This document shows, one piece after another, positions 51,344 to 61,700 of a stretch of 64,000 bases of DNA. Location: NCBI GenBank assembly GCA_903873415.1, contig CAIQOK010000067.1, forward strand, positions 13,967 to 77,966, written 5' to 3'. Under the pieces are notes generated by a model, which made no database searches, was not told the origin of the DNA, and saw nothing but the letters and a program-made list of their open reading frames with translations. A program made the translations under genes and the position numbers. The DNA comes from an uncultured Verrucomicrobiota bacterium (GTDB lineage: Bacteria; Verrucomicrobiota; Verrucomicrobiia; Limisphaerales; CAIQOK01). Numbering within the stretch: position 1 is the stretch's first letter; the number at the start of each line of letters is the position of its first letter.

Positions 51344-54300
51344 TCACTCCTTATCCAAACAATTCCGGATGGTGGAGGCCAGTTCGGAGATTTGATAGGG
51401 TTTGGGGATAAAGTTGACGCCCCGGTGCAGCGGAAAATCCGCTCCGGCAACCTCGGCGCTGTAACCGCTGGAATAGATGACTTTCAAGTTTGGCTCCTGG
51501 CTCTGGAGATTGGCAGCCAGCTCCCGGCCGTTCATTCCATCGGGCAATACCATGTCCGTGAGAAGAAGCCGGATAGCTGCCCGGTTCTGGCTCCAAAGCT
51601 GCAGGGCACTGCTCCCGTTCGCAGCCTCGATAATGCGATATCCAAGAAAACTCAGGGTGCTCCGGACCACCAGCCGCAAGCTGGAATCATCCTCAACCAG
51701 TAGGATGGTCTCACTCCCTCCGCGCATCGGCGGACTGGGCTGCAAAGCGAATTGGGAGGGGACCGGGTGGGTGAGCAGAGGAAGGTAGATTCGAAACTGG
51801 CTACCGCAGCCCGGAGTGCTGGAAACATCAATCCAGCCCTGGTGCTGCTGGATAATGCCGAAGACCGTGGCCAGTCCCAAGCCGGTGCCTTTGCCTACAT
51901 CCTTGGTGGTAAAAAACGGCTCGAATATCCGGGGCAGCACTTCGGGATCAATCCCGCATCCGCTATCGCTCACCGTCAGACAGGCAAATGGACCGGAGCG
52001 GCTCAGGGTCGATTGAGCCTCCGCCGCCGGGGGGAACTCCACGCGCGTGGTGGTGATGGTCAATTGCCCCCCTTTAGGCATGGCATCGCGGGCATTCAAG
52101 GTCAGATTCATCAGCACCTGGTCTAGCATCCCTGAATCCGCATGAACAAACAGGGGCTGGGAATGGCATTGAGTAACCATCTGAACATTCTCGCCCAGCA
52201 TCCGGTGAAGCATCTTGGTGATATGAGCGACAATCCCGTTCAAATCCAAGTCGCGCAACTGGAGGTTTTGCCGGCGGCTGAAGGTGAGCAGCTGCTGGGT
52301 GAGATTGGCGGCCCGTTGCGCGGCCCGTTCAATCTCGGCGGCAAGCTCCATCTGCGCGGGAGGCAGGCCGCAGCTGGATAGCAGCAGGCCGGCCTGAAGC
52401 TGAATCACGGCCAGGATGTTGTTGAAGTCATGGGCCACGCCCCCGGCCAGTTGCCCCACAACCTCCATTTTCTGGGACTGACGAAATTGCTCCTCCAGCT
52501 TGAGGCGCTCGGTCACGTCCTCCGCCGTGCCCACGATTCGCTGCAATTCCCCGGCCTCGTTGCGAACCGGAAATGCGCGGTCATGAATCCAGAGCAGCTC
52601 ACCATCGGGCCGGATAATCCGGTAGGTTTCATCGTAGCTCCCGTCGGCCTGCTTGGTCTCGGCGGCCCGCCGCACAAACTCCCTATCCTCCGGATGCACC
52701 GCCTCCAGCCACGAGCGGGGGGCCGCATAAAGGCTGGCACACGATCGCCCCCAAATGGCTTCAAAAGCAGGGCTGATGTAGAGCATTCGTTGCTTGCCGG
52801 GATCGGTGACCCAGAACACCTCGCGAATACTCTCGGCCAGTTCACGGAAGCGCGCCTCGCTTTGGCGCAAGACCTCCTCGGCCTGCTTCCGGGCGGTGAT
52901 ATCACGCACGATTATCGACACGCCAATCATGCAGCCAGCGGAGTCTTTGATGGAGGAGATCGTCGCCGCCACGTTAATGCAAGTCCCGTCCTTTCGGATC
53001 CGGAGGGTTTCAAACTGGCTGATCCGTTCGCCGGCCTGAATCCGCCGGATAATTTCATCCTCCTCACCGATGCGATCGGGGGGAAAGATTCCCACAAGGG
53101 ACCTGCCGAGCATCTCCTGCTCCGAGTATCCAAAGACCCGCTGGGCCGCGGCATTCCAGCTGGTCACCAATCCCTGGGGCGTCTTGCTGATGATGGCGTC
53201 TTCCGATGAATCGATCAGGGCGCAAGAGCGGGTCAACTCCAGTTCCGTCTGCTTGCGCCCGGTGATATCCCGGATGATTCCGACATAGTGAGTGACCTGG
53301 CCATCCTTATCCCGCAGCGGGGCGATCATCAGGTCATTCCAAAACGGGGTTCCGCTCTTGTGGTAATTGAGGATTTCACCGGAAAAGATCTGCTCGCTCT
53401 TGAAGGCCGCACGTATCCTGGCCACAAGCTGTGGATCCGTGCCGGGCCCCTGAAGAAAATCACAATTCCGACCAATCGCATCCTCCTCAAAATAGCCCGT
53501 GATGGCGGTGAAGGCGCTATTGACCGAAATGATCTTCCGGTCGGCGCCTGCGATCACCACTCCTTGGGAGATGGCTTTAAGGGCGCTGTCGCTGAGCCTC
53601 AGGGCCTGCTCCGCCTGCTTGCGCTCGGTCAGATCCATGTTGGCCCCCACCACGCGGACCGCCCGGCCCTCAGGATCCCGAACCACCCAACCCCGTGCCA
53701 GGATGGGCACATAATGGCCGGCGCGGTGACGCATCCGGGCCTCAAACTCATAGTTGCAACCCTGCCCGGCCAGGACCGAGGATACATACTGCTCAATCCG
53801 CACCGCATCTTCCGGATGGAGAAGCTCCAGCCACAACTGGGGGCCTGCCTTCAGTGCATAGGGTTCGTAGCCAAGCATCTGAAACCAGCGTGCTGAATAA
53901 TAAGCTTCGTTCCGGATCAAATCCCGGTCCCACACCCCGTCGCGCGAACCTTCAAGCACCAGGCGCAGCCGCTCCTCGGACTGCTGCAGTTTTAATTCCG
54001 TCTGGTGTTTGTAAAAGGCCATCTCCAGCACGGTGCGCAGCTCCCGTTCGGAAAAGGGCTTGATGATGTAGCCAAAAGGCTTGGCCAGCTTGGCCAGGGC
54101 CAGCGTGTCATCGTTGGCAAACGCCGTCAGAAAAATGACCGGCAGGGAAAACCGCTCCCGGATAATCTGAGCGGCGGTGATGCCGTTCATCGGGCCCGCC
54201 AGCTGAATGTCCATTAAGACCAGATCGGGCTTGAGTTCCGCCACAAGGTCCAGAGCCTTTTCCCCTTGAGTGGCATGCCCGGCCACTGCGTAATCCAGAT

Positions 54301-54385
54301 CGATCAACTGCATCTGAACGTCGCGGGCGACAACGACCTCATCCTCCACGATCAGGATCCTGAGTTTATGAGCTGGGGGGGTCAT
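51344..54385 (-). CDS. Hybrid sensor kinase: REC - 4 PAS (second one LOV-like) - HisKA - HATPase_c - REC
   Basis: ATG 54385 (MTPPAHKLRILIVEDE). N-terminal receiver (DLVLMDIQL, IIKPF). PAS/PAC segments. H-box VAHDFNNIL, N-box LNARDAM, G-boxes DSGCGI and GTGLGL. C-terminal receiver (ILLVEDD, LLLTDMVLPDGMNG). Confidence 0.9.
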   Translation of the reverse strand: MTPPAHKLRILIVEDEVVVARDVQMQLIDLDYAVAGHATQGEKALDLVAELKPDLVLMDIQLAGPMNGITAAQIIRERFSLPVIFLTAFANDDTLALAKLAKPFGYIIKPFSERELRTVLEMAFYKHQTELKLQQSEERLRLVLEGSRDGVWDRDLIRNEAYYSARWFQMLGYEPYALKAGPQLWLELLHPEDAVRIEQYVSSVLAGQGCNYEFEARMRHRAGHYVPILARGWVVRDPEGRAVRVVGANMDLTERKQAEQALRLSDSALKAISQGVVIAGADRKIISVNSAFTAITGYFEEDAIGRNCDFLQGPGTDPQLVARIRAAFKSEQIFSGEILNYHKSGTPFWNDLMIAPLRDKDGQVTHYVGIIRDITGRKQTELELTRSCALIDSSEDAIISKTPQGLVTSWNAAAQRVFGYSEQEMLGRSLVGIFPPDRIGEEDEIIRRIQAGERISQFETLRIRKDGTCINVAATISSIKDSAGCMIGVSIIVRDITARKQAEEVLRQSEARFRELAESIREVFWVTDPGKQRMLYISPAFEAIWGRSCASLYAAPRSWLEAVHPEDREFVRRAAETKQADGSYDETYRIIRPDGELLWIHDRAFPVRNEAGELQRIVGTAEDVTERLKLEEQFRQSQKMEVVGQLAGGVAHDFNNILAVIQLQAGLLLSSCGLPPAQMELAAEIERAAQRAANLTQQLLTFSRRQNLQLRDLDLNGIVAHITKMLHRMLGENVQMVTQCHSQPLFVHADSGMLDQVLMNLTLNARDAMPKGGQLTITTTRVEFPPAAEAQSTLSRSGPFACLTVSDSGCGIDPEVLPRIFEPFFTTKDVGKGTGLGLATVFGIIQQHQGWIDVSSTPGCGSQFRIYLPLLTHPVPSQFALQPSPPMRGGSETILLVEDDSSLRLVVRSTLSFLGYRIIEAANGSSALQLWSQNRAAIRLLLTDMVLPDGMNGRELAANLQSQEPNLKVIYSSGYSAEVAGADFPLHRGVNFIPKPYQISELASTIRNCLDKE
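53261..53587 (-). other. LOV-like PAS domain inside the hybrid kinase (Cys codon TGT at 53462..53464)
   Basis: QGVVIAGADRKIISVNSAFTAITGYFEEDAIGRNCDFLQGPGTDPQLVARIRAAF...ILNYHKSGTPFWNDLMIAPLRDKDGQVTHYVGIIRDITGRK is colinear with remembered YtvA and phototropin LOV sequences (G.NCRFLQG, NY.K.G..FWN, DIT). Confidence 0.65.
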
Positions 54386-54473
54386 AACAAAAAAGGAGGG
54401 GACCGCCGAAACGGAGCCGGAGCCGCTCCCGGTGCGGATGTCGAAAAACCGGATAATCCAGGGTGTGTCAGGC

Positions 54474-57035
54474 TCATTTGGCGGGGGTGGCCGGCAGATT
54501 CGCGGCCAGCGGGGTGAAGGTGACACTAAAGGAGGCCGCCGGCCTGGCAATCAGTTCCAGCCGGCCGCCAAGTTGCATCGTCAAATCGGAAACCAACTGC
54601 AGGCCCAGAGTCTGGGCCCGCGTGGGATCAAAGTCTGGCGGCAACCCCACGCCACTATCGCTAACCAGCAGGCGGAATTCCGGCCCGCCATCCACCGGCT
54701 GGAGCTCAACCCGAATTACGCCACTCTGCTTGTCAGGGAAGCCGTGTTTGAGCGCATTGGAGATGAGCTCATTGACCAGAAGGCCGCAGGGCAATGCTTG
54801 ATCCATCACCACGTGCACCGAAGCAAGGTTCAGCTCGAGGGAGACCTGACTCGGCCATACCACCAAGGAACGGAAGCAATGGGTGCTGAGCTGCTTGAGG
54901 TATTTTCCCAGATCCACCGCTGCCAGATTTTCGGACCGGTAGAGCGATTCGTGCAGAAGCGCCATGGACCGGATGCGGCCGTGCATGTCCCCCAACACCG
55001 TCTTGGTATCCGGATCCGGACTGCGGCCGGTTTCCAGACGGAGCAGGCTGTTGATAATCTGAAGGTTGTTTTTGACCCGGTGATGCACCTCCTTGAGCAA
55101 TGCGTCCTTCTCCAGAAGGGAAAACTGCAGAGCCTGCTCGGCCTGCTCACGAGCAAAAAGCTCCTGGCGCAGAAGCACGTTGGTCTCCACCAGATTCTCC
55201 CGGGCCTGCGAGAGCCCCTCCCGCGCGCCATCCAGCCCGACGGCTGCCCTTGCAATCTCATCTTGGAGACGGTTGAAATTCAGAGCCATGTCCCCCACCT
55301 CATCGCGGGAGAAGACCTTGACGGGGAGAATCTGGAAACGGGTTTGCGCGGCCTTCAGGTCGCCCGCTGCCAGGGCGCGCATGGCCTTGGTGAACTCCGA
55401 CAGGGTGCCGCCCACCAAGCTGTTGGCCGCCTTGGACACCTCCACCGCCGAGTGGGCTATCATCCCTGGCAGTATCAATCCCACCCCGATAGTGAGCAGG
55501 GCTACGATGACGAAAATGTCTTCCAGCAATACGATGAGGGCGTTGTTCTGGGTGGGGACATGGCTAACGGCGATAAGATAACCACCTGCGTCGAGCAAGA
55601 GCACAAGCAGCATGGCCCCGGTGAGTTTCAGATGGAGAGTGCGGGCCAAGCCAGACAGGCCTTGCTTGCGACGATCCGAGAATTTCCGCCAAGCATACAG
55701 CGCCGAACCGGAATAGGCAAAGGCTATGCCGATCAGCACGGTGGGCAGTCCGAACTGCTCAAACCCCAACACCACCGTCAGCCCCCAGGCCGCGGCGGCG
55801 AAAAGTCCCAGCGCAATGGTTCCGCGCGGGGCGCGGTAGGGGCGCGGCAGATCCGGCTCATTGTGCCGCAACAACCACACCGCCACATTGGGCATGGCAA
55901 TGCCAATCAAATAGGTCAGATTGGCCGCGGCGATCAGCCAGACCGGATCCCCGATAAACAGGAAGCCAATGGACATAGAGGCGGTCAGGAGGGTTGCAAA
56001 CCAAGGGGCATCGGCGCGGTTGCGCAAGGCCAGGGATTCCGGCAGGAGACCGTCCTCGGCGAGCTGCGCCAGAACGCGGGATGCGCCCGCCAAGGGGGCC
56101 AGCGTCCCGTGCAGCATGTTAAAGGTCATAAACCAAATGGCAGCCCCCTTGGCAAAAGCCCCAAACAGCGGCGCAAAGGTGGGCCCCAATTCCATGGCCA
56201 GATCCTTGCCCATCGGCTCCGCCCCGATGGTGCCCAGCCAGACCACGGGCAGGATGATGAAGTAAAGCCCGGCCAGTGCGGCGCTGGCAAAAACCGCGCG
56301 GGGCACGTTTCGGTTGGGATCAATCGTCTCACCCACATGCGAGGTGGCCTGCTCGAAAGCGGGGGCGGCAAATCCCACCAGATAGAGCCCGGCCATCACG
56401 CTGGTCAACTGCCCGAACCAGCCCGGAAACGGCACCGTCAAATGAAAGTTCAGCGCCTGATGCCAGTCCACTTTGCCGCTGACAACAGGGATCAATGCGG
56501 AGAGAAAAGCCAAGATTCCCGAGGCGGTTGCCACGGGCATGGCCAAACGCATGACCCATTTGACCCCGCACAAATTCACAAAGGTGAACAAAAGCACAAT
56601 GCACGTTGCCAGCAGCGGCACGGGACACCCGGGGAAATACCATTGATGCAGGGCAGAAGCAGAAAGCAGGGCGGTCAAGCCGCAGGTCGGCACCCACCCC
56701 CACCAGTAACATACTCCGGTGAGATTTGCCAGAACGGGACTGTAAGGACGAAACGCCTCTGCGCAAGTGGCCGAGATGCCCCCGACGCGATTGGGATACA
56801 TGAGAACCAATTCAAGCCATCCGGGCGTGGCGGCCCAACTCAGGAGTAATCCCACAATCAACAGGGGCACCGCCGCGCTGCCCTGACCAGGAATGGCCCC
56901 CTGACCAATGAATAAAGCACCCAGAAGAAAGAGGCTTTGGTTGATCCCGCCCATGGCCACGGCCGTGGTGCCGAACCAACCCACCGTGCGAGGATGCAGG
57001 AGCGACCCGCCGGTTACGAATGAGCTTTTATTCAT
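54474..57035 (-). CDS. Fusion of an APC-superfamily amino-acid-permease-like domain with a HAMP + HisKA_2-type histidine kinase
   Basis: About 450 aa of polytopic permease-like sequence (GINQSLFLLGALFIG..., WGWVPTCG...). Two further TM segments follow, then a HAMP-like segment (FSRDEVGDMALNFNRLQDEI), a coiled coil and H-box EVHHRVKNNLQII. ATPase motifs are ELISNALKHGFP, DSGVGLP and LGLQLV. Confidence 0.85.
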   Translation of the reverse strand: MNKSSFVTGGSLLHPRTVGWFGTTAVAMGGINQSLFLLGALFIGQGAIPGQGSAAVPLLIVGLLLSWAATPGWLELVLMYPNRVGGISATCAEAFRPYSPVLANLTGVCYWWGWVPTCGLTALLSASALHQWYFPGCPVPLLATCIVLLFTFVNLCGVKWVMRLAMPVATASGILAFLSALIPVVSGKVDWHQALNFHLTVPFPGWFGQLTSVMAGLYLVGFAAPAFEQATSHVGETIDPNRNVPRAVFASAALAGLYFIILPVVWLGTIGAEPMGKDLAMELGPTFAPLFGAFAKGAAIWFMTFNMLHGTLAPLAGASRVLAQLAEDGLLPESLALRNRADAPWFATLLTASMSIGFLFIGDPVWLIAAANLTYLIGIAMPNVAVWLLRHNEPDLPRPYRAPRGTIALGLFAAAAWGLTVVLGFEQFGLPTVLIGIAFAYSGSALYAWRKFSDRRKQGLSGLARTLHLKLTGAMLLVLLLDAGGYLIAVSHVPTQNNALIVLLEDIFVIVALLTIGVGLILPGMIAHSAVEVSKAANSLVGGTLSEFTKAMRALAAGDLKAAQTRFQILPVKVFSRDEVGDMALNFNRLQDEIARAAVGLDGAREGLSQARENLVETNVLLRQELFAREQAEQALQFSLLEKDALLKEVHHRVKNNLQIINSLLRLETGRSPDPDTKTVLGDMHGRIRSMALLHESLYRSENLAAVDLGKYLKQLSTHCFRSLVVWPSQVSLELNLASVHVVMDQALPCGLLVNELISNALKHGFPDKQSGVIRVELQPVDGGPEFRLLVSDSGVGLPPDFDPTRAQTLGLQLVSDLTMQLGGRLELIARPAASFSVTFTPLAANLPATPAK

Positions 57036-57421
57036 GCTTGCCGTATCTGCAATCGAAGTAGATAGCTAAAACTCTGCGCGGATACCCACTTGTTGTCAAC
57101 AAGGCCGTCCCCATTCCCCTGCCCGGCCGGGAGGCGACTGCAAATCTCCCAAGCTCTGCAATCCGAAAAACCCCAAGACCGGAAACCCCTGCGAAATCCA
57201 AGCACCACAACTGAATAAGCATAGCAAATCCAAAGCCAATCCCCTCGAACCCGCAAAAGGCTTTTCAATACCCAGAGGGAATCCGGATTTCAAAAAACAC
57301 CCGACCAATGGGGCATATCCTCATCGGCTCAAGGAAGCAGTGACTTGACTGAAAAAGAGTGGCTACAAAGCCGTTGCTGTCAGGCAGGTTGAAACCACCC
57401 GGCTGTCTGACCCGTTTTAAT

Positions 57422-58660
57422 TCACCCTGACAGCGGAGATGTATGATCGCCATTCACTCCTTTGATTGCCCGCAACAGACCTTGGGCTGCGGCTTGGGCA
57501 AAGACGGGATCATTGATGGCGCAGTCCAACTCCCTCACCTCAATATCCGGACGAAGCCGGGACTTGAGAGTGGAGTAGAGCGCATTATCGGCCACCGGGT
57601 CATGAAAAGGCCCGCCAGGCGCGCCGATACCACTCCCTCCGCGCAGCGGCAAAAGCACCAGGACCGATCCGGTGGATCCGTTGAGTTTATCTGCCAGAAC
57701 AGCACCAAGTTGCGCGCACTCCTCCGGACTGGTGCGCATGAGGGTCACCTGCGGATTGTGCTGATAGAATTTTCGGCCGGCGAATTTTGAAGGCACCGTG
57801 GAACGCTCGCCGAAATTAACCATGTCGAGGCATCCGGTGGAAACCACCGCCGGCACGCCGTGGCGCGCGGCGGCTTCCAAGCGCGTCGCCCCCGCCGCAA
57901 GCACTCCTCCCACCAGTTCATCGGCCCACTCGGTGGTCGTCACGTCCAGCACCCCCGCAACCAGACCGGTTTCAATCAGAGATTCCATGGTGCGCCCACC
58001 CGTGCCAGTGGCGGCAAAGACGAGAACCTCATAACCGGCCGCCTCAAGGATTTTCCGCGCCTGCTCAACGCATGCGGTGGTGTTTCCGAACTGACTGGCC
58101 ACGATCACCGGTTTGTCACCGACCGGCGGCAGGGGTTGCTCTACCATCCCGCAGATGGCACCCGCCGCGCGGGCCAGAAGCATGCGGGAGAGGCGGTTCA
58201 GCCCGGCCACATCCACGATGCTCGGAAACATCACGATGTCCTTAACGCCGACATACGGTGCCACGTTGCCACTGGCCAGCGTGGAAACCATGAGCTTCGG
58301 GAAACCGACCGGCAACGCGCGCATGGCCGCCGTGGCGATCGCCGTGCCGCCCCCTCCGCCCAGCGAAATGACTCCGTCAATCCGCCTCTCCTCAACCAAC
58401 CGTGCAAGCAGGACCGGCGCACCCTCAGACATCGCCGTCACCGCCTGACCCCGATCCCGTTTGGCCGCAAGCCCCGCTGCATCCAGTCCGATGGCTGCGG
58501 CCACTTCGGTCCTGGAGATATCGGGATTAATCCCGGGCACACCCAAGGTCCCCACATCAATGATCAGGACTTGATGGCCGCGCTGACGAATGAGCTCAGC
58601 CACGAAGCCGTGCTCGGCTCCCTTGGTGTCCATCGTCCCCAGAATGGCAATCGTTTTCAT
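57422..58660 (-). CDS. UPF0261 / Tm-1-like ATP-binding protein
   Basis: MKTIAILGTMDTKGAEHGFV..., ISLGGGGGT, PKLMVSTLASG. ATG at 58660. Confidence 0.8.
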   Translation of the reverse strand: MKTIAILGTMDTKGAEHGFVAELIRQRGHQVLIIDVGTLGVPGINPDISRTEVAAAIGLDAAGLAAKRDRGQAVTAMSEGAPVLLARLVEERRIDGVISLGGGGGTAIATAAMRALPVGFPKLMVSTLASGNVAPYVGVKDIVMFPSIVDVAGLNRLSRMLLARAAGAICGMVEQPLPPVGDKPVIVASQFGNTTACVEQARKILEAAGYEVLVFAATGTGGRTMESLIETGLVAGVLDVTTTEWADELVGGVLAAGATRLEAAARHGVPAVVSTGCLDMVNFGERSTVPSKFAGRKFYQHNPQVTLMRTSPEECAQLGAVLADKLNGSTGSVLVLLPLRGGSGIGAPGGPFHDPVADNALYSTLKSRLRPDIEVRELDCAINDPVFAQAAAQGLLRAIKGVNGDHTSPLSG

Positions 58661-58707
58661 GGCGTCACGCGGCCGGGACTTGAAACCGGGCGCGCAGGAA
58701 ACTCCGG

Positions 58708-61700
58708 TCACTTGCCCGCAGACCAGAGAACTGCGTTGCGCAGAATGCGCATATAAGCCTCATGATTGTGCGCATCGCCGTCGTGTCCCAGGGTAATGCC
58801 CACAACGCGGCCTTTGGCCTGGTCCACCGTGAAGACCTGAGGATAATCCTTGCCGTCATGGGGCGAGTGCGCCGTGGCGAGGACCTTGACCGGAGGCCCC
58901 TGCGAATCGATTTCAAAGTGGTAAAGCTCGTCCTTGAGCGTGAACTTTGCCGGCACCCCCAGCATCAGCGGATGTGTGGGGGCGGATACCTGCACGTCGA
59001 ATTGGCCGTATTTGTCGTGACCGTGTGAGCCGCCCCCGATAAGGCTGCGGTTGTATTCGGGCCAATCCCGCCAGTTGTACCAAAGGCCGGGATGCAACCC
59101 GATGATTCCCCTGCCCTGTTCCAGATGGTGGAAGATGGCCGCCTTGGTGGCGGCATCGGTGAAGGGCTTGTTGTTGGAGATGATCAGCACATCCACCCCG
59201 CCGATTATGTCCGCCAAGCCGCCGGTGGTTTCCGTGTAGTTTGCGCTGATACCTCCCCCTTCGTTGAGGTTCCTGACATCAGCTCCATTGAACCAGCGCT
59301 CGAAATCATGACTCGATCCGCCGCCGATGATCAGTGTTTTCAAACCGCCGCCCCACTTGAACACGGGCACGGGGGACGCGCTGGAACTCCCGGACCCAAC
59401 CGGCAAGGCTGGACCGCCCTCACCCAGCTCGGCGGTGATGGCCACGAAAGTGGGGGCCACCTCATTTCCGTAACTGGAGATTGTCAGCTTCTCCACCATG
59501 CCGCGCTGCTTGAGCGCCTTGACGAAGTAACGCACCTGCCGCCCCTGTTGAAGGAGTTGATCGAGATTTTCCAGCGCTTCCGAGCCGGGCACATCGATAT
59601 GGGCTATGTAATCGGCGATCTCGACGCCGTTGCGCAGAACAATCTCCTCAATCGCACCACCGGCAAAGTGAACCAACACCTTGGCTGCCGGCTCATTATT
59701 CTTTCCGCCCGGAAACCCCCAACCGGCCACACCGCCCAGAAAATGCAGCTTGGTGGCCGGCAAACCCACCTTGACCTCAACCTGACGAGGATAGGTCTGG
59801 GACAGGCCGGTGCCGCCTTGGAGGACAATCACGTTCTTGCCCGTGGCGGTGCGTTGGGGATTGATGACATCAAAGGACACCTCGCGATGCTTAACGGCGC
59901 CCCAGCGTTTGAAACGCAATGATTCTTCCCGTGATTCAATGGATTGATAAATCCCCCGCGCCGTGCTGGCGGTGAAGGCCGATGTGAGGTCCAGCATGCG
60001 GAACCGGCGCTCGTCGGCGCAAAGGTAGGAGAGCAAATCACGCAACCCCTCAGCCCCAAGCTGCTCAAAGCCCTCAGGCATGAGGGAACGGGTCGTGTCC
60101 CGACGCGTCTTGATGTTGTCCTTGCGTATCTCCATCTCCCCGGTCTGATTGCGAAGAACCACCACCTTGCCGTTCTCCCGCAGCACAATGCCATCAAAGC
60201 TCAGATCGTCCTTGGTTTCGATGCTGACGGTATAGAAATTCGGTTCAACCACGCGGTTTGGATCCACAATATGAACCAGCAGCTCCCCGGGGCCATGCGC
60301 GCCCATCCCGTTGAGATTGGGGGCGAAGTTGGCCCCCTGCCCCTTGAAATTGTGGCAGGGGGTGCACGACTGGGAAAATATCCGGGCCCCATTGGTCACA
60401 TTGCCCGGCTTGACAACCTCGGGCCGCAGCTTGGCTATCAGCAGGTCCTTCTCCTTATGCTCCGGTCCGCTCAATTGGTCGATGACGCGGTTGGCCTCCG
60501 CAGCCACAGCGGGATCGGCATGAGTCCGTAGCCGATAGAGATTTGCCAGGCCGAGCAGGGCCGGATCAAGCTTGTGCTCCGCCAGAGCGGCAACCACCGC
60601 CGCCGACCAATCGGCCCGGCGGATCAATTGCCCGAACGCGGCTTCACGCAACTCGAAGGATAACCTGGGCAAAGCCGAAACCAAGGTCCGGCCGACAGCC
60701 GGCTCAGCGATCGCACCAAGGGCCTGAATGACCCTGATCTGCAATGCGGGACTGGCATCACCGGCCACCAGCGAGGCCACCGCCGGCAAAATCCCCGGGT
60801 CCACAGCGCGCACCCCGAGCAAATCGGCGGCGAGTTGCCCGCGCTGGGCATCCGCCAAAGACTTGTCCAACAATTGGGCCTCCAATCGCGTGATGGTTGG
60901 GCGAATTGTGGCGCCGAGCTGGCCGGCCAGATTCCATTCACCAACCAGCGGCATGGCCGCTCCGGCCGTGAGATCCGAGGCGAGCAGCCGGCCCAGAGCG
61001 ACGGCCAAAGCGGAATCGGCAACGGGTTTGACATCATGCCGCAAGTTGGCCCGGAGCGACTGAAGTGCCAGCGCCTTGTATTCGTCCACAGCCGGGGGCT
61101 GGTCAGCCAGCACAACCAACAAGGCCCGAACGGATTCCGGGTTGTTTTGATTGGCCACCTGCCGGGCCAGATGCGTGATCATGGATGCCGCCAACGCTGG
61201 GTTCCCGGCTGAAAGAGCCGCGCTGAGATACAACAGCGGCGCCTTGACCGTCATTGCCAGCGCCGCAGTCTCAAGATGGGGGTTTTTGAAGGAGGGCCAT
61301 GCCTCAACCAAGGCCGCCGCCAGGGCCGCATTAGGCGTCAACGTGCCACATCCTATCAGCGCCCAGACCCGAACCCGTTGATCCGGATCAGCCAGCAGGG
61401 AGCGAATCACTTCAATCGGGGGGGTAACAGCGGAGTTGTCCTGCTCGGCTCCGATCCGCAATGCGTTTTTACGAATCAGCGCCTCGGGATCCCGGATGGC
61501 ACCGGCAAGCAGTTCAGGTTTGAGGAGGTTGAGATTATGCAAAACCCAGAGGGCCTGCATGCGTCCATAACCCGTGCGGGCCTTGCCGGCCTTGGCATTG
61601 AGCGCATCCTCAGCACCCCGCCCGGCCCCCTCGCTCAAGAGACGGTTGGCCGTCGTGCGCACCCATCCATTGGGATGATCCAGCATTTCCACCAGACCAG

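Follow-up and report, generated by a model that had tools for sequence, protein, structure and literature searches.

A permease-like APC domain fused to a HAMP-HisKA_2 histidine kinase: a candidate modular membrane sensor of Verrucomicrobiota and other bacteria

Can a complete transporter fold serve as the input of a histidine kinase when both are parts of one polypeptide? The question is raised by a gene in a 64,000-nucleotide stretch of contig CAIQOK010000067.1 from an uncultured Verrucomicrobiota bacterium (this whole stretch is referred to below as the window). The product of the gene belongs to the APC family in the broad Pfam sense, to the HisKA_2 kinases and to the HAMP receptors. We put at about 0.7 the probability that the ligand occupancy or conformational state of its permease-like domain gates the fused kinase and, through it, a relay involving a partner kinase; this estimate rests on the fold of the protein, the conservation of its parts and the arrangement of its relatives, which are considered below in this order.

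Domain architecture and fold of the fusion protein

The initial annotation, made from the sequence alone, had described the first ~450 amino acids (aa) as a complete APC-type permease, followed by two more transmembrane (TM) segments, a HAMP-like linker, a coiled coil, an HHRVKNNLQ H-box of the HisKA_2 type and an ATPase domain. All of these assignments held up. In Pfam searches the permease-like part matched AA_permease_2 (PF13520; aa 19-425, 106.6 bits against a cut-off of 27, E = 1.9e-30, model positions 2-405 of 427) and AA_permease (PF00324; aa 41-373, 48 bits against 24.6), and the remainder matched HAMP (PF00672; aa 546-594, 27.4 bits against 25), HisKA_2 (PF07568; aa 649-723, 90 bits against 22.3, E = 1.1e-25) and HATPase_c (PF02518; aa 752-842, 35.7 bits against 26.4). 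According to hydropathy and to the secondary structure of AlphaFold2 (AF2) models, 12 helices lie within aa 20-457 and are followed by two extra TM helices (467-491 and 498-522) with a periplasmic loop of ~6 residues between them. This TM13-TM14 hairpin carries the conserved intramembrane residues D482, G485, Y486, E505 and D506. TM14 runs on into the HAMP helix AS1 (helix 498-556), which starts at P523; after a connector (557-578) the helix resumes at 579. The HAMP domain contains the DEVG motif, and its second helix, AS2, reads SRDEVGDMALNFNRLQDEI. The H-box is borne by a single unbroken helix, 579-671, which also accounts for the coiled coil. In the ATPase domain the N box (N755/N760), the G1 box (D793-x-G795-x-G797) and the G2 box (G811-L-Q-L) are intact, and N755, N760, D793, G795, G797 and G811 are nearly invariant among homologues.

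The permease fold could have lacked support from hidden Markov models; in fact, both these models and a confident structure prediction back it. A diverse alignment of the family underlies the AF2 model of aa 1-645, which has a predicted local distance difference test score (pLDDT) of 91.4 and a predicted template modelling score of 0.87. It supersedes an earlier full-length model derived from a shallow alignment, which had a pLDDT of 68.8 and gave poor template modelling scores (TM-scores). Foldseek searches of the PDB with the sensor-only model retrieved AdiC, BasC, LAT1, y+LAT1, SLC7A10 and GkApcT, with TM-scores, normalised by the target and computed over ~450 columns, of 0.72-0.80 overall: 0.80 for AdiC (root-mean-square deviation 3.7-4.0), 0.78 for BasC, 0.77 for LAT1 and 0.76 for GkApcT. 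The best of these matches are structures that we take to be in outward-facing states. A profile search of the PDB, for which the alignment was trimmed to be free of kinase columns, pointed the same way: xCT, y+LAT1/2, LAT1 and GkApcT were found at E-values of 7e-15 to 1e-10 and aligned over TM4-TM12, ApcT and BasC were found at about 1e-5, and AdiC was recognised via the fold alone.

Several sequence features typical of APC transporters can be located on this fold. TM1 is interrupted in the model at residues 31-33, at the conserved G29-G30-I31-N32. The segment after TM2 holds an E-L-x4-P-x-R-V-G-G motif, in which G85 and G86 are invariant family-wide. The TM6 motif GFAAPAFE is followed by VGETIDPNRNVP, which aligns with the SLC7 pattern G-W-D-x-L-N-x-x-T-E-E-x-x-N-P-x-x-N-x-P; within TM6, P225 occupies the position of a glycine in other APC members and E228 aligns with the conserved glutamate of APC transporters. 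The end of TM8 carries S-R-x-x-x-Q-L-A-E-D-G-L-L-P, an APC signature, and TM3 is rich in aromatic residues (CYWWGW). TM1-3 are strongly conserved inside the family, yet no other part of the domain is as far removed from classical APC transporters; the whole fold superposes on AdiC and LAT1 despite the unmatched TM1-3 sequence. Mapping of pocket residues by aligning TM1-3 to solved APC transporters was dropped, whole-domain profiles aligning only from TM4. The domain also falls outside every named, functionally defined APC subfamily of NCBIfam, with no equivalog match: the best scores were 106 bits for the trimethylamine N-oxide permease model (cut-off 690) and 73 bits for TIGR00909 (cut-off 557).

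The kinase half is less unusual. It matches the HisKA_2 kinase EL346 (PDB 4r39) both in sequence (E = 7.9e-19) and in structure (Foldseek E = 5.6e-10 with the full-length model), and its HHRVKNNL aligns with EVQHRVKNHL of EL346.

The two halves belong to one genuine gene. Three contigs from different sources, the longest of 100.6 kb, encode the identical 853-aa protein, and near-identical copies occur on others. At every locus fetched, sensor and output lie in one continuous open reading frame (ORF), including those in the finished genome CP011265 (strain IMCC26134), on a 5.17-Mb pilon-polished contig of Undibacterium arcticum and on contigs of 1.28 Mb and 0.77 Mb (loci L039, L042, L046 and L072); that at least one of the large contigs was polished with long reads is judged from record and contig names. 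Composition is smooth over the permease-kinase junction in the window.

Distribution of the sensor module and its outputs

To what extent the fusion is shared was assessed with two peptide patterns specific to the family, which were run against 185,579 species, each represented by a single genome. The architecture is widespread: 421 loci encoding relatives were found, mostly in Verrucomicrobiota (Akkermansiaceae, Chthoniobacterales, Opitutae), with other carriers among Planctomycetota, Burkholderiales/Methylophilaceae, Alphaproteobacteria, Acidobacteriota, Omnitrophota and Polyangiaceae. All ten distant members that we looked up came from metagenomes; cultured organisms that encode a relative are Verrucomicrobia bacterium IMCC26134 and Undibacterium arcticum KCTC 42986. 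Automated annotation (JGI) labels relatives 'two-component sensor histidine kinase/amino acid transporter' or 'amino acid permease'.

When aa 1-625 were searched against 1.84 billion representative proteins, 1470 matches were obtained at E<=1e-3, 277 of them at E<=1e-30; judging by these matches, ordinary APC permeases are too distant to surface in such a search. Every end-to-end match, from 78% down to ~30% identity, spans aa ~14-620, that is, the permease-like domain together with TM13/14 and HAMP. These proteins are 800-1540 aa long and must therefore carry further domains. Stand-alone members of the clade were also sought, but the short matches end at alignment edges and look truncated by contig ends, so that no example of an intact permease without a fused output could be demonstrated. 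With an identity across phyla of 30-80%, the sensor module (aa ~14-625) forms a distinct APC clade, found almost only in fused form.

The outputs attached to the module are diverse. In a Pfam scan of 43 aligned sequences (the sensor fragment from the window and 42 family representatives), HAMP was matched in 36, and the output domains comprised HATPase_c (27 sequences), HisKA (12), GGDEF (11), EAL (8), PAS types (~10), REC (6), GAF (4), the HD-GYP-type HD_5 (2), Hpt (2) and SpoIIE of the PP2C type (1). Among closer homologues the module is followed by HisKA_2, by PAS and HisKA_2, by HisKA and REC with or without Hpt, or by GGDEF and EAL (P0104). Conservation follows the same boundary. In the diverse family alignment it amounts to 0.60-0.68 for the pocket-lining TM1, 2, 3, 6, 8 and 10 and to 0.65 for each of TM13 and TM14, on par with the pocket helices, compared with 0.45-0.55 for the scaffold helices TM4, 5, 9, 11 and 12; past ~aa 625, where outputs are swapped, it falls from 0.46 to 0.08. 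A further alignment of homologues is invariant up to R612. Such a profile marks a mobile input module, in which the ligand pocket and the coupling hairpin are under selection and the outputs are exchangeable.

One metagenome-assembled genome, AM_bin-1889, holds two APC-HAMP paralogues (L011 and L056), one of the HisKA_2 type with 73% identity and the other an 898-aa type with 56%. The presence of two paralogues with different outputs in a single genome suggests that one class of signal is wired to several pathways.

The downstream hybrid kinase and gene neighbourhood

On the same strand, 88 bp past the stop codon of the fusion gene, starts a gene for a 1013-aa hybrid kinase (Table 1). In the 13 distinct HisKA_2-type loci from other organisms, a hybrid kinase beginning with a receiver (REC) domain lies directly downstream on the same strand without exception; the start of the downstream ORF is offset by -82 to +65 bp (with a 4-bp overlap in six loci), and its first receiver is 47-62% identical to that of the kinase in the window. 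In addition, sister proteins such as P0063 have the same sensor fused straight to a transmitter of the HisKA-HATPase-REC type, which shares 50% identity, over 386 aa, with the transmitter of the downstream kinase in the window. This pattern, in which the same parts occur either as a fusion or as neighbours, speaks for the two genes of the window forming one pathway. Most likely, the receiver at the N-terminus of the hybrid kinase takes its phosphoryl group from the HisKA_2 kinase, as far as gene order and domain fusions allow such a step to be predicted. The REC-first kinase is also the only recurrent neighbour: all-against-all clustering of ORFs from 85 loci revealed no other.

Two loci depart from this arrangement. 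In L020 and L021 the sensor is fused to a non-HisKA_2 output and the next gene encodes a single-domain receiver, of 125 and 168 aa, respectively. The L020 protein (P0094) has Pfam HisKA and HATPase_c domains and no receiver, and its neighbour is unlike the REC-first hybrid partner.

One PAS domain of the partner kinase in the window is a true LOV domain, of the blue-light type: it carries GRNCDFLQG, the motif with the cysteine that binds flavin, and phmmer matches it (1e-29) to LOV domains of known structure from a multi-sensor hybrid kinase and from phototropins. A regular-expression search for the motif found it in the partner of the window only and in no partner kinase of the other fetched loci, so light input may be lineage-specific.

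Table 1. Coordinates of the fusion gene, its parts and nearby features within the window (aa, residues of the fusion protein unless stated otherwise)
Feature	Position	Strand	Basis or remark
Whole fusion gene, 853 aa, ATG start, stop codon included	54474..57035	(-)	ORF list, Pfam, full-length homologues
12-TM APC/LeuT-fold permease-like input domain, aa ~16-457	55665..56990	(-)	Pfam, AF2 sensor model, Foldseek, PDB profile matches
TM1-3, aa 12-135	56631..57002	(-)	Region of the 27-sequence profile
TM13-TM14 hairpin, aa 467-522	55470..55637	(-)	Hydropathy, AF2 helices 467-491 and 498-556, conservation, translation
HAMP, aa 523-597	55245..55469	(-)	Pfam, AF2 secondary structure, translation
Signalling coiled coil, aa 598-640	55116..55244	(-)	Continuous helix 579-671 in AF2 secondary structure
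HisKA_2 dimerisation/phosphoacceptor domain, aa 641-723	54867..55115	(-)	Pfam, EL346 alignment, translation
H-box HHRVKNNL, aa 651-658	55062..55085	(-)	Translation
Predicted phosphoacceptor H652	55080..55082	(-)	H-box in translation
HATPase_c catalytic domain, aa 745-842, with N, G1 and G2 boxes	54510..54803	(-)	Pfam, Foldseek, conservation
Upstream intergenic region, 386 bp, presumed promoter region	57036..57421	(-)	GC ~0.53 vs ~0.60; composition and sequence
Likely phosphorelay partner, hybrid kinase, ATG at 54385 (REC, PAS, LOV, PAS, PAS, HisKA, HATPase_c, REC)	51344..54385	(-)	Pfam/NCBIfam
LOV domain of the partner kinase	53198..53587	(-)	Motif GRNCDFLQG, phmmer
UPF0261 (Tm-1-like) protein	57422..58711	(-)	Both Pfam domains E 1e-64 to 1e-88
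DUF7133-ThuA protein, 1700 aa	58708..63810	(-)	DUF7133, HEAT repeats, C-terminal ThuA
Giant ORF, 4079 aa	26376..38615	(-)
Antisense ORF, 805 aa, over the fusion gene	54432..56849	(+)	Translation rich in G, R, Q, P

The other neighbours in the window are unrelated and are not conserved beside the fusion gene; they include the UPF0261 protein upstream of it, the giant DUF7133-ThuA protein and a GH5 enzyme. Proteins of the DUF7133-ThuA type are known from Verrucomicrobiota and Planctomycetota, and a DUF7133 protein is also encoded near the homologue in L004. The long antisense ORF is most likely a by-product of high GC content. No consensus sigma-70 site was found in the 386-bp region upstream of the fusion gene, and no CbrX-like peptide was identified among the small upstream ORFs, in a search that covered this locus alone; candidates exist, none of them with support.

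With respect to the initial annotation, three points are additional: the family is widespread, the next gene is the likely partner, and automated annotation labels for relatives exist.

Proposed mechanism, alternatives and related systems

The mechanism that we favour is as follows. The protein would be a dimeric membrane sensor histidine kinase, whose input is a complete transporter-like APC module with an SLC7/LAT-like LeuT fold. A small solute would bind in the central pocket formed by TM1, 3, 6, 8 and 10, or, alternatively, the outward/inward rocking that accompanies binding or transport would itself be the signal. The change would be read by the TM13-TM14 hairpin and passed into the canonical HAMP domain, which together with the continuous coiled coil would toggle the HisKA_2 domain between kinase-on and kinase-off states; on/off switching of kinases is known HAMP behaviour. 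H652 would then be autophosphorylated, and the phosphoryl group would be handed to the first receiver of the hybrid kinase encoded by the next gene, which, with its PAS and LOV sensors, would relay an integrated signal onward. That substrate binding or transport might directly gate the kinase (a 'transceptor') had already been proposed in the initial annotation. The shuffling of the sensor among outputs, the conservation of the pocket helices and of TM13/14, and the conserved partner strengthen this proposal; the gating itself we still infer rather than observe. As to the ligand, an organic cation or amine is suggested by the aromatic-rich TM3 and the non-canonical TM1, but this is a low-confidence guess.

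A number of observations weigh against the proposed gating or against a conventional amino acid as the signal. The TM1 motif is GG(S/I)NQS in place of the canonical G-S/T-G, and a 27-sequence profile of aa 12-135, covering TM1-3, had no PDB match at E<=1; given both, an alpha-amino acid is not assured as the ligand. TM6 is one continuous DSSP helix (206-231) in the model, though P225 is kept in 40 of the 43 aligned sequences. The AF2 models cover the monomer. Gene context was tried as a clue to the ligand, and the 85-locus clustering gave none. Scans for promoters and terminators performed no better than on shuffled sequence and gave no signal for or against co-transcription of the fusion gene and the downstream kinase. 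Finally, even in CbrA, the best-studied analogue, the coupling of transport to signalling is still unresolved.

The alternative that survives best is a sub-variant of the proposed gating, in which the APC-like domain no longer transports and serves for ligand binding alone, as does the Amt domain of Ks-Amt5, the precedent for binding without translocation. The clade is found almost only fused to signalling outputs, and its TM1-3 are so diverged that no solved transporter matches them by sequence, both of which would fit a pure receptor. On the other hand, all canonical APC signatures and both halves of the fold have been kept (E-L-x4-P-x2-G-G, the F-E of TM6, the NP-x-(K/R)-N-x-P loop and SR...Q-L-x-x-D-G-L-L-P in TM8), and the SLC5 domain of CbrA does transport. 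Sequence alone does not distinguish such a receptor from a transporter; we regard loss of transport as a real possibility that falls somewhat short of even odds.

It is unlikely, in our judgement, that the permease-like domain responds not to a specific solute but to a physical or ionic variable (pH, proton-motive force, the state of the membrane), or is just an anchor or dimerisation scaffold, with the PAS/LOV domains of the partner doing the real sensing. AdiC E208 has been linked to pH sensing, and the alignment of E228 with the conserved TM6 glutamate of APC transporters would agree with a role of this kind, as would the four PAS-type domains of the partner kinase, one of them LOV, and the lack of a conserved metabolic gene nearby. 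Yet in a mere anchor the helices around the pocket would not stay the best-conserved region at identities of 30-80%. Moreover, there are HisKA_2-type proteins without any other input domain, and the same module drives GGDEF/EAL, HD-GYP and PP2C outputs without a LOV partner. Even less probable is the reverse direction of control, in which the permease would be the output, a working transporter regulated by the attached kinase and HAMP. Cytoplasmic regulatory domains do control some transporters, but the domain order is that of an input followed by a transmitter (membrane module, HAMP, then the dimerisation and catalytic domains of the kinase), the module is joined to GGDEF, EAL, HD-GYP and SpoIIE outputs that have downstream targets of their own, and the conserved REC-first partner lies downstream. 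The view that the halves are separate genes, joined by a frameshift or a chimeric assembly, is refuted by the identical protein on three contigs from different sources, the hundreds of full-length homologues, the unbroken ORFs in a complete genome and on large contigs, and the smooth composition at the junction.

Gating of the kinase by the permease-like domain would have parallels in known systems. Two families of fusions between a transporter and a kinase have been characterised, CbrA of Pseudomonas (SLC5-STAC-PAS) and Ks-Amt5 (Amt), and a sensor-kinase-MFS fusion class is listed in TCDB. The initial annotation had named fusions of the CbrA type as established and an APC permease-kinase fusion as not known to have been characterised; our full-text literature search agrees, having returned only CbrA, Ks-Amt5 and the TCDB class and no account in which a permease of the APC family is joined to a kinase or to enzymes of cyclic di-GMP (c-di-GMP) turnover. 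In a 2026 structure paper CbrA is called "a rare transceptor". Similarly to CbrA/CrbS-type proteins, the protein described here has a complete LeuT-fold secondary-transporter domain N-terminal to a histidine kinase in one polypeptide, and both have been proposed to be transceptors. However, the transporter of CbrA is of the SLC5 type with 13 TMs (here APC/SLC7-like with 12), its coupler is a STAC four-helix bundle with PAS (here a two-TM hairpin with HAMP), and its kinase is HisKA (here HisKA_2); in the Pfam scan the fusion protein had no SSF or STAC match, which places it outside the CbrA family. Ks-Amt5, an ammonium sensor kinase of Candidatus Kuenenia stuttgartiensis that binds without transporting, likewise repurposes a transporter fold as the input of a fused histidine kinase; its response regulator is unknown. 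It differs in its trimeric Amt fold and in having no HAMP, PAS or STAC coupler, whereas the present protein combines the APC fold with a TM hairpin and a canonical HAMP; with no Amt match in the Pfam scan and a HAMP domain present, it is not of the Ks-Amt5 type. By analogy, then, the fusion protein probably works like these two families without being a member of either.

Kinases that use a separate transporter as co-sensor, also mentioned in the initial annotation, are well known, for example in DctA-DcuS and BceAB-BceS. In these systems and in LysP-CadC, the state of a transporter is read by a signalling protein via membrane-helix contacts; LysP, like the input domain here, is an APC permease. 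The partners are separate proteins there, whereas here the transporter-like domain and a two-helix anchor are covalently fused. BceS-type kinases, among which BceS was retrieved by structure search, are anchored by a pair of TM helices that a minimal outer loop connects, and in this they resemble TM13-14. The TM13-14 loop of ~6 residues is comparable to that of BceS-like intramembrane-sensing kinases, but the transporter is present in cis and the kinase subtype differs; reliance on the transporter is, in our case, inferred. With SLC7/LAT-type and related APC transporters (xCT, y+LAT1/2, LAT1, BasC, GkApcT, AdiC) the protein shares the fold and the signature motifs that follow TM2, that lie within and just past TM6, and that close TM8; it differs in having two extra TMs and a signalling C-terminus, at an identity of 17-22%. 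EL346/PhyK-like HisKA_2/HWE kinases are similar in the H-box HRVKN, in the shape of the N, G1 and G2 boxes and in structure, but EL346 is soluble with a LOV input, as opposed to the 14-TM membrane module with HAMP.

Taken together, these results are compatible with a proposal on which we are evenly divided: the unit of ~610 residues made of the APC-like 12-TM domain, TM13/14 and HAMP would be an undescribed, self-contained input module, a transporter-derived and possibly non-transporting receptor that senses a solute, perhaps an organic cation or amine, and passes the signal to phosphorelays of histidine kinases, to the turnover of c-di-GMP and to PP2C phosphatase pathways. Its carriers would be hundreds of species from fresh water and soil, among the Verrucomicrobiota, Planctomycetota, Proteobacteria and Acidobacteriota. 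The principle of a transporter-kinase transceptor is known from CbrA and Ks-Amt5; what is new is a widespread modular sensor with a distinctive coupler of TM hairpin and HAMP and a conserved phosphorelay partner. Few transporter-kinase fusions have been studied, and how the motion of a transport fold reaches a kinase is an unsolved question. To it the family brings a new type of transporter, an SLC7-like APC with the fold of the human drug targets LAT1 and xCT, and, because a two-helix hairpin feeds a textbook HAMP, coupling becomes approachable with the existing HAMP toolkit. The joining of one sensor to kinases, GGDEF/EAL, HD-GYP and PP2C provides natural domain swaps, and the sensor could serve as a portable module in synthetic biology. 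If the domain indeed binds without transport, it would be the second bacterial carrier turned receptor after Ks-Amt5. For the organisms themselves, the family may show which signals are sensed by the Verrucomicrobiota and methylotrophs of fresh water and soil, which are abundant but little studied.

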